A DNA stretch of 6,512 nucleotides from a virus (Duplodnaviria > Heunggongvirae > Uroviricota > Caudoviricetes), in IMG/VR virus record IMGVR_UViG_2531839454_000010. One strand, 5' to 3'. Of the stretch, positions 2,129 to 5,853 are shown piece after piece (position 1 is the first letter of the stretch; each line of letters begins with the position of its first letter). Position numbers and translations under genes: made by a program. Below the pieces are notes generated by a model that did not search any database, was not told the DNA's origin, and worked only from the letters and a program-made list of their open reading frames with translations.

Positions 2129-2551
2129 ATGTTCCTGAAAACCGAATCATTTGAACATAACGGTGTGACCGTCACGCTTTCTGAACTGTCAGCCCTGCAG
2201 CGTATTGAGCATCTTGCCTGGTTGAAAGAGCAGGAAAAAAAGGCTGAATCCAGTGGCAACCTGCAGGTGTCTGTAGAGGATCTTATCAGAGGCGGGGCGT
2301 TTCTGGTGGCGATGTCTCTGTGGCATAACCATCCGCAGAAGACAAAGCTGCCGTCCATGAATGAAGCCGTTAAACAAATTGAGCAGGAAGTGCTTACCAC
2401 CTGGCCCACGGAGGCAATTGCTCAGGCTGAAAACGTGGTGTTACGTCTGTCCGGAATGTCTGAGTTTGTTGTGAATGATGCACCTGAACAGGCAGATGAC
2501 GCCGGGCCTGCAGAGCCTGTTTCTGCGGGAAAGTGTTCGACGGTGAGCTGA
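2129..2551 (+). CDS. G: Tail assembly chaperone, lambda gpG-like, 140 aa (zero-frame product)
   Basis: ORF 2129..2551 with ATG preceded by GGAG (2117-2120). Translation MFLKTESFEHNGVTVTLSELSALQRIEHL...PVSAGKCSTVS matches lambda gpG and carries the slippery heptamer G GGA AAG near its 3' end. Confidence 0.9.
   Translation: MFLKTESFEHNGVTVTLSELSALQRIEHLAWLKEQEKKAESSGNLQVSVEDLIRGGAFLVAMSLWHNHPQKTKLPSMNEAVKQIEQEVLTTWPTEAIAQAENVVLRLSGMSEFVVNDAPEQADDAGPAEPVSAGKCSTVS
2527..2533 (+). other. Programmed -1 ribosomal frameshift slippery heptamer G GGA AAG (X XXY YYZ) linking G to T
   Basis: GGGAAAG at 2527-2533 sits in the G frame as G|GGA|AAG (Gly-Lys), 6 codons before the G stop. A -1 slip re-pairs the tRNAs to GGG-AAA and continues with GTG (2533) in the T frame. 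Same heptamer and position as the known lambda G-T frameshift. Confidence 0.85.
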
Positions 2552-2967
2552 GTTTTGCCCTGAAACTGGCGCGTGAAATGGGGCGACCCGACTGGCGCGC
2601 CATGCTTGCCGGGATGTCATCCACGGAGTATGCCGACTGGCACCGCTTTTACAGTACCCATTATTTTCATGATGTTCTGCTGGATATGCACTTTTCCGGG
2701 CTGACGTACACCGTGCTCAGCCTGTTTTTCAGCGATCCGGATATGCATCCGCTGGATTTCAGTCTGCTGAACCGGCGTGAGGCTGACGAAGAGCCTGAAG
2801 ATGATGTGCTGATGCAGAAAGCGGCAGGGCTTGCCGGAGGCGTTCGTTTTGGCCCGGACGGGAATGAAGTTATCCCCGCTTCCCCGGATGTGGCGGACAT
2901 GACGGAGGATGACGTAATGCTGATGACAGTATCAGAAGGGATCGCAGGAGGAGTCCGGTATGGCTGA
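2533..2967 (+). CDS. T: T segment of the tail assembly chaperone G-T fusion; -1 frame relative to G, expressed only by programmed frameshifting (fusion spans 2129..2967)
   Basis: The -1 frame is open from 2533 to the TGA at 2965-2967. Its translation VFDGELSFALKLAREMGRPDWRAMLAGMSSTEYADWHRFY...GIAGGVRYG matches the lambda T region as I recall it. There is no independent Shine-Dalgarno or ATG start; the frame is entered from G at GGGAAAG (2527-2533). Confidence 0.82.
   Translation: MFDGELSFALKLAREMGRPDWRAMLAGMSSTEYADWHRFYSTHYFHDVLLDMHFSGLTYTVLSLFFSDPDMHPLDFSLLNRREADEEPEDDVLMQKAAGLAGGVRFGPDGNEVIPASPDVADMTEDDVMLMTVSEGIAGGVRYG
2945..2951 (+). promoter_or_regulatory. Shine-Dalgarno (AGGAGGA) for H, embedded in the 3' end of the T coding sequence
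   Basis: AGGAGGA lies 8 nt upstream of the H ATG at 2960, inside the T reading frame. Confidence 0.6.
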
Positions 2968-5527
2968 ACCGGTAGGCGATCTGGTCGTTGATTTGAGTCT
3001 GGATGCGGCCAGATTTGACGAGCAGATGGCCAGAGTCAGGCGTCATTTTTCCGGTACGGAAAGTGATGCGAAAAAAACAGCGGCAGTCGTTGAACAGTCA
3101 ATGAACCGGCAGGCGCTGGCTGCACAGAAAGCGGGGATTTCCGTCGGACAGTATAAAGCCGCCATGCGTATGCTGCCTGCACAGTTCACTGACGTGGCCA
3201 CGCAGCTTGCAGGCGGGCAAAGTCCGTGGCTGATCCTGCTGCAACAGGGTGGTCAGGTGAAGGACTCCTTCGGCGGGATGATCCCCATGTTCAGGGGGCT
3301 TGCCGGTGCGATCACCCTGCCGATGGTGGGGGCCACCTCGCTGGCGGTGGCGACCGGTGCGCTGGCGTATGCCTGGTATCAGGGCAACTCAACCCTGTCC
3401 GATTTCAACAAAACGCTGGTCCTTTCCGGCAATCAGGCGGGACTGACGGCAGATCGTATGCTGGTCCTGTCCAGAGCCGGGCAGGCGGCAGGGCTGACGT
3501 TTAACCAGACCAGCGAGTCACTGACGGCGCTGGTGAATGCCGGTGTGCGTGGTGGTGAGCAGTTTGAGGCGATCAGCCAGAGTGTGGCGCGTTTCTCCTC
3601 TGCATCCGGCGTGGAGGTGGACAAGGTCGCTGAAGCCTTCGGGAAGCTGACCACAGACCCGACGTCGGGACTGACAGCGATGGCACGTCAGTTCCATAAC
3701 GTGACGGCGGAGCAGATTGCGTATGTTGCTCAGTTGCAGCGTTCCGGAGATGAAGCCGGGGCATTGCAGGCGGCGAACGAAGCCGCAACGAAAGGGTTTG
3801 ATGACCAGACCCTCCGCCTGAAAGAGAACATGGGCACGCTGGAGACCTGGGCAGACAGGACAGCACGGGCATTCAAATCCATGTGGGATGCGGTGCTGGA
3901 TATTGGTCGCCCGGACACTGCCCAGGGAATGCTGGAGAAAGCAGAGGCTTTGCGGACAAAAAAGCAGACGACATCTGGAATCACCGGCAAGGATAACCTC
4001 AGCTTTGTTAACGATGAAGCGCGGGAGCGTTACTGGGATGATCGTGAAAAGGCCCGTCTTGCGCTTGAAGCCGCCCGAAAGAAGGCTGAGCAGCAGACTC
4101 AACAGGCCAGAGAGATGGCAGCAAAGGACTGGGCCGAGTCTGAGGCATCACGGCTGAAATATACCGAAGAGGCGCAGAAGGCTTACGAACGCCTGCAGAC
4201 GCCGCTGGAGAAATATACCGCTCGTCAGGAAGAACTGAACAAGGCACTGAAAGACGGGAAAATCCTGCAGGCAGATTACAACACGCTGATGGCGGCGGCG
4301 AAAAAGGATTATGAAGCGACGCTGAAAAAGCCGAAGCAGTCCGAGGTGTCTGCGGGCGATCGTCAGGAAGACAGTGCTCATGCTGCCCTGCTGACGCTTC
4401 AGGCAGAACTCCGGACGCTGGAGAAGCATGGTGGAGCGAATGAGAAAATCAGCCAGCAGCGCCGGGATTTGTGGAAGGCGGAGAGTCAGTTCGCGGTACT
4501 GGAGGAGGCGGCGCAACGTCGCCAGCTGTCTGCACAGGAGAAATCCCTGCTGGCGCATAAAGATGAGACGCTGGAGTACAAACGCCAGCTGGCTGCACTT
4601 GGCGACAAGGTTACGTATCAGGAGCGCCTGAACGCGCTGGCGCAGCAGGCGGATAAATTCGCACAGCAGCAACGGGCAAAACGGGCCGCCATTGATGCGA
4701 AAAGCCGGGGGCTGACTGACCGGCAGGCAGAACGGGAAGCCACGGAACAGCGCCTGAAGGAACAGTATGGCGATAATCCGCTGGCGCTGAATAACGTCAT
4801 GTCAGAGCAGAAAAAGACCTGGGCGGCTGAAGACCAGCTTCGCGGGAGCTGGATGGCAGGCCTGAAGTCCGGCTGGAGTGAGTGGGAAGAGAGCGCCACG
4901 GACAGTATGTCGCAGGTAAAAAGTGCAGCCACGCAGACCTTTGATGGTATTGCACAGAATATGGCGGCGATGCTGACCGGCAGTGAGCAGAACTGGCGCA
5001 GCTTCACCCGTTCCGTGCTGTCCATGATGACAGAAATTCTGCTTAAGCAGGCAATGGTGGGAATTGTCGGGAGTATCGGCAGCGCCATTGGCGGTGCTGC
5101 CGGTGGTGGCGCATCAGTGTCAGGCGGTACAGCCATTCAGGCTGCTGCGGCAAAATTCCATTTTGCGACCGGGGGATTTACGGGAACTGGCGGCAAATAT
5201 GAGCCAGCGGGGATTGTTCACCGTGGTGAATTTGTCTTCACGAAGGAGGCAACCAGCCGGATTGGCGTGGGAAATCTCTACCGGCTGATGCGCGGCTATG
5301 CGGAAGGTGGTTATGTGGGCGGTGCCGGAAGTCCGGCGCAGATGCGGCGGGCGGAAGGCATTAATTTTAATCAGAACAATCACGTGGTGATTCAGAACGA
5401 CGGTACGAATGGTCTGCCAGGTCCACAGATGATGAAGGCAGTGTATGACATGGCCCGTAAGGGGGCCCGTGATGAAATTCAGGCACAGATGCGCGATGGT
5501 GGTCTGTTCTCCGGAGGTGGACGATGA
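2960..5527 (+). CDS. H: Tail tape measure protein, lambda gpH-like, 855 aa
   Basis: ORF 2960..5527 with ATG preceded by AGGAGGA (2945-2951); the start overlaps the T stop by 8 nt. Translation MAEPVGDLVVDLSLDAARFDEQMARVRRHF...RDGGLFSGGGR matches lambda gpH. It has a long A/Q/E/K/R-rich central helical region and a Gly/Ala-rich hydrophobic segment near the C-terminus. Confidence 0.95.
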   Translation: MAEPVGDLVVDLSLDAARFDEQMARVRRHFSGTESDAKKTAAVVEQSMNRQALAAQKAGISVGQYKAAMRMLPAQFTDVATQLAGGQSPWLILLQQGGQVKDSFGGMIPMFRGLAGAITLPMVGATSLAVATGALAYAWYQGNSTLSDFNKTLVLSGNQAGLTADRMLVLSRAGQAAGLTFNQTSESLTALVNAGVRGGEQFEAISQSVARFSSASGVEVDKVAEAFGKLTTDPTSGLTAMARQFHNVTAEQIAYVAQLQRSGDEAGALQAANEAATKGFDDQTLRLKENMGTLETWADRTARAFKSMWDAVLDIGRPDTAQGMLEKAEALRTKKQTTSGITGKDNLSFVNDEARERYWDDREKARLALEAARKKAEQQTQQAREMAAKDWAESEASRLKYTEEAQKAYERLQTPLEKYTARQEELNKALKDGKILQADYNTLMAAAKKDYEATLKKPKQSEVSAGDRQEDSAHAALLTLQAELRTLEKHGGANEKISQQRRDLWKAESQFAVLEEAAQRRQLSAQEKSLLAHKDETLEYKRQLAALGDKVTYQERLNALAQQADKFAQQQRAKRAAIDAKSRGLTDRQAEREATEQRLKEQYGDNPLALNNVMSEQKKTWAAEDQLRGSWMAGLKSGWSEWEESATDSMSQVKSAATQTFDGIAQNMAAMLTGSEQNWRSFTRSVLSMMTEILLKQAMVGIVGSIGSAIGGAAGGGASVSGGTAIQAAAAKFHFATGGFTGTGGKYEPAGIVHRGEFVFTKEATSRIGVGNLYRLMRGYAEGGYVGGAGSPAQMRRAEGINFNQNNHVVIQNDGTNGLPGPQMMKAVYDMARKGARDEIQAQMRDGGLFSGGGR

Positions 5528-5853
5528 AGACCTTCCGCTGGAAAGCGAAACCCGGTATGGATGTGGCTTCGGTCCCTTCCGTAAGAAAGGTGCGCTTTGG
5601 TGATGGCTATTCTCAGCGAGCGCCTGCCGGGCTGAATGCTGACCTGAAAACGTACAGCGTGACGCTTTCTGTCCCCCGTGAGGAGGCCACGGTACTGGAG
5701 TCGTTTCTGGAAGAGCACGGGGGCTGGAAAGCCTTTCTGTGGACGCCGCCTTATGAGTGGCGGCAGATAAAGGTGACCTGCGCAAAATGGTCGTCGCGGG
5801 TCAGTATGCTGCGTGTTGAGTTCAGCGCAGAGTTTGAACAGGTGGTGAACTGA
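5524..5853 (+). CDS. M: Tail tip assembly protein, lambda gpM-like, 109 aa
   Basis: ORF 5524..5853. Translation MKTFRWKAKPGMDVASVPSVRKVRFGDGYSQRAPAGLN... matches lambda gpM, same length (109 aa). Start overlaps the H stop (ATGA at 5524-5527). Confidence 0.9.
   Translation: MKTFRWKAKPGMDVASVPSVRKVRFGDGYSQRAPAGLNADLKTYSVTLSVPREEATVLESFLEEHGGWKAFLWTPPYEWRQIKVTCAKWSSRVSMLRVEFSAEFEQVVN

Follow-up and report, generated by a model that had tools for sequence, protein, structure and literature searches.

A probable lambda-type programmed −1 frameshift joining the tail genes G and T of a lambda-like phage tail module

Introduction

In the tail module of a lambda-like phage, gene G is followed by a reading frame, T, that is commonly presented as a gene of its own. 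The question raised by this locus is whether T is indeed translated independently, or whether it is reached only by ribosomes that shift by −1 at the heptamer GGGAAAG near the end of G and thereby produce a gpG-T fusion. The first description of a programmed −1 G-T frameshift is that of Levin, Hendrix and Casjens (1993), and the lambda case has served as a textbook example of recoding ever since; among long-tailed dsDNA phages the tail chaperone frameshift was reported to be conserved (Xu, Hendrix and Duda 2004, Mol Cell). The G-T frameshift site examined here is therefore already known and is biologically nothing new. The remark on its annotation stands nevertheless, because PGAP and many phage records still call a stand-alone, GTG-initiated T. 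We are highly confident that the site is a lambda-type programmed −1 ribosomal frameshift of the tail assembly chaperone genes.

Results

Gene order and origin of the window

The window, i.e. the whole stretch of DNA that was analysed, comprises 6512 bases. On the + strand it carries a tail module in the order FII-Z-U-V-G-T-H-M-L, as assigned from Pfam matches and from the genes that PGAP calls on the nearest E. coli chromosome. The features are as follows.

30-383, + strand: FII-like head-tail joining protein (Pfam/PGAP)
395-973, + strand: Z (Pfam/PGAP)
970-1365, + strand: U (Pfam/PGAP)
1373-2113, + strand: V, major tail tube protein, upstream neighbour of G (PF16461 and Big_2; start from Shine-Dalgarno pairing and PGAP)
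2129-2551, + strand: G, tail assembly chaperone gpG, 140 aa, zero-frame product (PF06894, TIGR01674, Shine-Dalgarno pairing, PGAP)
2500-2551, + strand: G/T overlap; here alone the G frame and the −1 frame are open together (TGA 2497; G stop TGA 2549-2551)
2527-2533, + strand: slippery heptamer G_GGA_AAG, with P-site GGA (Gly134) and A-site AAG (Lys135) (sequence and frame)
2533-2967, + strand: T segment, −1 frame, 144 codons followed by TGA 2965-2967 (PF06223, TIGR01715)
2129-2967, + strand: predicted gpG-T fusion, CDS join(2129..2533,2533..2967), 279 aa, 30.9 kDa (built in silico)
2960-5527, + strand: H, tape measure protein, downstream neighbour (PF06791 and PF09718; Shine-Dalgarno pairing −10.3 kcal/mol)
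5524-5853, + strand: M (Pfam/PGAP)
from 5853, + strand: L, start only (Pfam/PGAP)

The nine tail-module ORFs in the window are all intact and of full length, with normal starts and coupling overlaps. Consistent with the synteny V-G-T-H, Pfam and PGAP place the G/T pair between the major tail tube and tape measure genes. The start of H overlaps the stop of T (ATGGCTGA). For V, the ORF lister proposed ATG 1343 (256 aa), whereas Shine-Dalgarno pairing, PGAP and lambda favour ATG 1373 (246 aa); the pairing energies are −2.2 kcal/mol for ATG 1343 and −5.9 kcal/mol for ATG 1373.

Around G-T the window shares about 94.5% DNA identity with lambda and is thus lambda-like rather than lambda itself. The best phage matches to the window were IdasGreatGrand and PhiR46_1 (97.7%), and the best complete E. 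coli chromosome reached 98.0% identity over its full length. The exact G allele is common on E. coli chromosomal contigs, where the gene order is the same. Because of this chromosomal occurrence, the window is most likely prophage DNA.

G and T belong to known protein families

G matched PF06894 (1.5e-53) and the equivalog model TIGR01674 (1.1e-57; 193.8 bits against a cut-off of 74.45), and the PGAP call for it in the nearest E. coli record has identical coordinates. T matched PF06223 and the equivalog TIGR01715 (1.9e-56; 189.1 bits against a cut-off of 77.35). The latter match begins at residue 5 of the T frame, which is upstream of the first ATG. In phrog_32165, a profile of 290 positions that comprises annotated fusions, G and T aligned colinearly at positions 1-142 and 140-285, respectively. 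When the fusion was built and compared to that of lambda, 256 of 279 residues were identical, with 144/144 in the T part and 112/135 in the G part. No PDB chain matched the fusion by sequence at E <= 0.01.

The reading frames allow only a −1 shift

GGGAAAG occurs once on the + strand of the window, at 2527-2533. In the frame of G (ATG 2129) it is read as G_GGA_AAG and is followed by codons for CSTVS and by TGA 2549-2551. The −1 frame is closed by TGA 2497 and is open from 2500 to TGA 2965-2967, so that the two frames overlap by 52 nt (17 codons). G_GGA_AAG is the sole in-frame slippery heptamer inside this overlap. Since both frames are open only in 2500-2551, a shift that joins them has to be a −1 shift within that stretch. 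Two other ways of extending G were considered and rejected: the +1 frame stays open for no more than 9 codons, and readthrough of the TGA in the zero frame would not lead to the T motif.

The predicted junction is ...PVSAGK/VFDGELSF..., and the junction peptide reads ...PVSAGKVFDGELSF... This agrees with the junction given in a preliminary description of the locus. The same description had placed the heptamer 6 codons before the G stop, which is right if counted from the Lys codon, with 5 sense codons lying in between. It had also described the T frame as open directly past the heptamer, as is the case with the −1 frame open over 2500-2967, and the lambda geometry as exactly preserved. Indeed, about 2510-2576 is identical to lambda NC_001416, and neither the slip site nor its spacing from the stop differs.

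In-frame X_XXY_YYZ heptamers were found 6 times in 1776 codon positions of the seven complete genes, which is about the number expected from base composition. Because in-frame heptamers occur at this background rate, the heptamer alone is weak evidence. The chance expectation for XXXAAAG within the 17-codon overlap is about 0.5%, and the heptamer gains its significance from this position and from its conservation among relatives.

The slip site is conserved among distant relatives

We compared the spacing of heptamer and stop across lambdoid G/T homologues, a check that had been suggested beforehand. The slip site lies in the overlap of all 54 complete divergent or species-representative loci, in each case as N_NNA_AAG, separated from the G stop by five codons or by one. 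Among the species-representative genomes, every complete locus (37/37) carries GGGAAAG or GGAAAAG, five codons or one before the stop. Close relatives show GGGAAAG with five codons to the stop in 81 of 82 loci, the exception having been analysed at a premature stop in G. In divergent phages the heptamer itself varies by type. GGGAAAG is found in the Stx2a type and AAAAAAG in the Stx1 type. N15, phi80, mEp237, mEp043 and an Enterobacter phage carry G_GAA_AAG five codons before the stop, and mEp460, Fels-1 and Gifsy-2 carry it one codon before the stop. In an alignment of G proteins (30-84% identity), Lys135 is the sole invariant residue of the variable C-terminal tail. The slip site is kept across genera, down to about 30% identity of G.

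Nucleotide diversity in 68 unique close relatives, selected to include only sequences that carry GGGAAAG, is lowest at 2519-2548 (pi 0.009 compared to a mean of 0.059). This dip fits dual coding. It is supporting evidence only and not independent proof, because it is confounded by dual coding, by the generally lower diversity of T compared to G and by the GGGAAAG filter.

Several further observations were made in the course of the comparison. The G segment 2204-2308 is hypervariable among close relatives, where pi reaches 0.25 and no fewer than three distinct alleles are present; beside a T that matches lambda in all 144 residues, such a segment points to a mosaic or recombination boundary inside G. 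One otherwise close relative (IMGVR_UViG_2671180673_000015) carries a TAG nonsense codon at codon 33 of G (LAWLK*QEKK), which is probably due to a decaying prophage or a sequencing error. Exact copies of lambda G were found in species-representative assemblies of taxa that include Neobacillus, Oceanobacillus, Kitasatospora, Shewanella, Pseudomonas, Leeuwenhoekiella, Chromatium and Pseudoxanthomonas, and several of the contig names give a coverage near 1x. These copies in unrelated taxa are almost certainly contamination of the assemblies with lambda DNA. In the N15/phi80 type, G_GAA_AAG is an imperfect X_XXY_YYZ, and a P-site tRNA-Glu would have to re-pair on GGA; the records of this type nonetheless annotate it as the slippery sequence. 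In mEp460, Fels-1, Gifsy-2 and a Citrobacter prophage, all with G_GAA_AAG one codon before the stop, and in a Phytobacter prophage, where the same heptamer stands five codons before it, an SD-like GAGG or AGGA lies 10-13 nt upstream of the heptamer. It is possible that this element is a frameshift stimulator that is absent from the lambda-type group.

T lacks a translation start signal of its own

The T frame contains a GTG at 2533, which begins on the last base of the heptamer and is used as the start of T by the ORF lister as well as by PGAP. To assess potential start sites, the 18 nt upstream were paired with the 3′ end of 16S rRNA, and all 364 start-like triplets in the window served as background. 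The pairing energy at GTG 2533 was −3.4 kcal/mol, compared to a background median of −3.1 kcal/mol. In contrast, G, H, M, Z and FII showed pairing of −6.6 to −10.8 kcal/mol, with G itself (ATG 2129) at −6.6 kcal/mol. At the next in-frame ATGs of T (2578, 2602 and 2614) no Shine-Dalgarno sequence was observed (−1.5 to −2.3 kcal/mol). By this computational test, the T frame is without a translation start signal of its own. T had been described as lacking both a start and a Shine-Dalgarno sequence. The latter part is correct, as pairing is at background level, but the former has to be qualified, since a GTG is present at 2533.

The GTG is not maintained in relatives. At the same position, relatives with 70-73% G identity (Stx2a_JNE110649, PhiR12_5 and an E. 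albertii prophage) have GTC, Stx1-type phages have GCA, and the N15, phi80 and Gifsy types have GCC or GTC. In relatives that lack the GTG, the first start-like codon of the T frame occurs 15-69 nt past the heptamer. The peptide encoded in the T frame, on the other hand, is kept from the first codon after the heptamer onwards, with the consensus GK[VA][FL]xxELxFxxxLAREFxRPDWRxML. In phi80, mEp043, Gifsy-2 and the prophages of Superficieibacter, Pluralibacter and Phytobacter, T could start no earlier than codon 25-26, past the LAREFxRPDWR block. The conserved block precedes every start in those relatives and could therefore be translated only by ribosomes that come from G.

These data have to be weighed against the possibility that T is a stand-alone gene, in which ribosomes would start at GTG 2533, whether directly or through termination-reinitiation on completing G at TGA 2549 (16 nt downstream), and make a 144-aa gpT. 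The GTG is present, and T is called in this way by the ORF lister, by PGAP, in the PhiR46_1 record and by metagenome gene callers. Gene U likewise has a weak Shine-Dalgarno pairing (−3.3 kcal/mol) and is evidently translated by coupling to Z via an ATGA overlap. Because U is translated by coupling despite its weak Shine-Dalgarno sequence, the missing signal at GTG 2533 is not decisive alone. Nevertheless, not only GTG 2533 but also the three downstream ATGs remain at background pairing, and the GTG changes to GTC, GCA or GCC while the peptide is kept and, in many relatives, reaches upstream of all starts. Independent initiation also has to contend with the G frame, in which the Lys codon and the heptamer are conserved while the remaining G tail is variable, and with lambda, identical here, for which Levin et al. 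(1993) report a gpG-T fusion. We thus consider independent translation of T highly improbable. Our data support the view that the T segment is the C-terminal half of gpG-T rather than an independent gene, as far as can be judged from sequence. This agrees with the earlier proposal to treat T as a frameshift fusion instead of a GTG ORF, which is borne out by the lack of a Shine-Dalgarno sequence, the unconserved GTG, the conserved peptide upstream of it and the lambda-identical site.

No SD-like or structural stimulator was detected at the slip site

Folding of the 67-107 nt past the heptamer did not reveal a significant downstream stimulatory structure in the window when compared to shuffled sequences (z −0.4 to −1.05); only N15 reached a z of −2.2. 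A long-range stem that starts 7 nt past the heptamer in the 107-nt fold was rejected as a candidate, as an alignment of 16 sequences gave no consensus near the site and no covariation. The consensus structure of this alignment has an energy of −2.2 kcal/mol with a covariation term of +0.3. Following the criteria of Sharma et al. 2014, we also searched for an SD-like element 6-17 nt upstream of the heptamer. Such an element is absent in the window and in the lambda, Stx2a, Stx1 and N15 types, and is limited to the cdtI-like subgroup plus a few others.

In a reporter study in E. coli, G_GG.A_AA.G was among the three most efficient heptamers, and motifs without a stimulator reached at most about 10 times a background of 0.055%. 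The few-percent rate of lambda is not accounted for by any feature that we detected, which is a minor point and no contradiction. As this rate exceeds that of stimulator-free reporter constructs, the G-T site may possess an unrecognised stimulatory feature.

Additional slippery heptamers in G and H

A second in-frame slippery heptamer, A_AAA_AAG, is located in G at 2236-2242 (EQEKKAE). A −1 slip at this position is predicted to give Lys-Lys-Gly and to end after two codons at TGA 2245, resulting in an abortive product of 38 aa. The heptamer is allele-specific: about 30 related viral loci have it, and lambda and 434 do not. A_AA.A_AA.G has been reported to be highly shift-prone and to be under-represented in E. 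coli genes. As an intrinsically stronger slip site, the heptamer could, if selected, be an allele-specific attenuator of the total G plus G-T output, although we regard this as very unlikely. Slipping at 2236 would cut short part of the translation of G before the G-T site is reached. A further in-frame A_AAA_AAG inside H (3958-3964), where a −1 slip would add 12 codons up to a stop at 3994, probably occurs by chance.

Discussion

The anatomy of the sequence, the homology of both proteins, the synteny, the lack of an independent start signal and the conservation of slip site and trans-frame peptide are direct observations on the window and its relatives. The shift itself, its frequency and its role in assembly would, by analogy with the experiments on lambda, also apply to this phage. 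Ribosomes would initiate at ATG 2129 and translate G. Once AAG of the heptamer has been decoded, the P-site tRNA-Gly, paired with GGA, and the A-site tRNA-Lys (mnm5s2UUU), paired with AAG, would slip one base back onto GGG and AAA. A few percent of the ribosomes would slip in this way, bypass the G stop at 2549 and go on in the T frame to 2967, giving a 279-aa gpG-T next to a far greater amount of 140-aa gpG. Judging from lambda homology, gpG and gpG-T should coat the tape measure protein H with their G domains and the T domain of the rare fusion should recruit the tail tube protein V, with neither protein expected to remain in the finished tail.

For lambda itself, about 96% zero-frame retention has been reported (Maynard et al. 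2012, PMC3296357), corresponding to about 3-4% fusion. In the same study, thiolation of U34 in tRNA-Lys was found to tune the gpG:gpGT ratio, and its loss raises the shift and harms phage production. According to a review, tail assembly in lambda depends crucially on a gpG:gpGT ratio of about 30:1; gpH is bound by the G domain and gpV by the T domain, and both products are required but absent from the virion. The literature values are in line with the small-percentage shift and the essential G to G-T ratio that the preliminary description had given for lambda. In the body text of PMC3296357, the lambda slippery sequence is printed as GGGTTTG (GGT-TTG / GGG-TTT), whereas Table 1 gives GGGAAAG; the table is correct and the body text is wrong.

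A fusion could in principle also arise at the level of transcription, with RNA polymerase instead of the ribosome slipping in the A run and adding or deleting a base. Transcriptional slippage is known from a review as an alternative route to trans-frame products, and Stx1-type relatives contain a run of six A (AAAAAAG). The heptamer of the window, however, offers just three consecutive A (GGGAAAG). Productive polymerase slippage is known on homopolymer runs far longer than three A. Moreover, what the relatives conserve is the tRNA re-pairing pattern N_NNA_AAG and not the length of the run, and the response of the lambda frequency to tRNA-Lys U34 thiolation (PMC3296357) is a ribosomal effect. 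The probability of a transcriptional origin therefore appears close to nil. Another explanation would be that the site is a relic, i.e. that the prophage is defective and the heptamer has merely been retained through recent common ancestry with lambda without having a current function. The window probably comes from a prophage, since its exact G allele occurs on bacterial chromosomes; in one related viral contig G is interrupted by a nonsense codon, and the close relatives differ too little for the conservation among them to demonstrate selection. It is difficult to reconcile a relic with nine intact tail-module ORFs that have normal starts and coupling, with inducible or plaque-forming phages that share the site at 95-98% identity, and with conservation of the site down to about 30% G identity across genera. 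We give this explanation next to no weight, and a ribosomal frameshift that is in current use remains by far the best description of the site, with nothing in the sequence speaking against it.

The useful consequence concerns annotation. T is listed as a separate, GTG-initiated CDS of 144 aa in RefSeq lambda NC_001416 (10115-10549), in the PGAP annotation of the E. coli prophage NZ_LR882997 (locus L137, 2533-2967) and in the phage record PV340565 (locus L138, 734-1168). In mEp237, PhiR12_5 and others, T was started at a downstream ATG, which cuts off the conserved N-terminal block. The records of phage 434 and phi80, on the other hand, annotate the homologous joined CDS correctly, and the frameshift is given as a misc_feature in the N15 record and as a note in the Gifsy-2 record. 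We suggest that join(2129..2533,2533..2967) for gpG-T replaces the stand-alone T. The current annotation spreads a T protein that the phage probably does not produce, and it leaves out the 279-aa fusion predicted here. The replacement of GTG by GTC, GCA or GCC while the trans-frame peptide is kept provides an argument for a fusion that needs no more than sequence and can be reused for automatic annotation.

Among known systems, the closest is G/G-T of lambda (Levin, Hendrix & Casjens 1993, J Mol Biol 234:124; Xu, Hendrix & Duda 2013, 2014). The heptamer, CSTVS, the TGA and all of 2510-2576 are identical, the order V-G-T-H is shared, and the fusion has 279 aa in both. The differences are located mainly in the G part, where 112 of 135 residues are identical and the window has another allele of the hypervariable segment 2204-2308. 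Additionally, the G of the window has the extra in-frame A_AAA_AAG at 2236. Due to TGA 2497, the −1 frame of the window opens 12 nt later, giving an overlap measure of 49 nt compared to 61 nt in lambda. In sequence terms, the window has all the defining features of a lambda-type gpG/gpG-T frameshift.

The class described by Xu and colleagues in 2004 (N15 gp14/15, phi80 gpG-T, Gifsy-2, HK97) likewise has an overlapping ORF pair between the major tail and tape measure genes, in which the second ORF is in the −1 frame and without a start, and the slip site precedes the first stop by a few codons. In contrast to the window, the N15, phi80 and Gifsy types use G_GAA_AAG, which deviates from X_XXY_YYZ, and the Stx1 type uses A_AAA_AAG; the slip site of the cdtI-like group lies one codon before the stop, and the T parts of the class are shorter, with about 112-117 codons. 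With E. coli dnaX and IS911/IS3 the site shares a tandem-slippage heptamer that ends in A_AAG and is decoded by tRNA-Lys(mnm5s2UUU), and both G_GG.A_AA.G and A_AA.A_AA.G are among the most efficient −1 motifs of the E. coli reporter study. Those systems, however, depend on an SD-like element upstream together with a hairpin or pseudoknot downstream, and their frequencies are in the tens of percent, whereas no stimulator of the dnaX/IS911 type was detected at the site in the window and the rate in lambda is a few percent.
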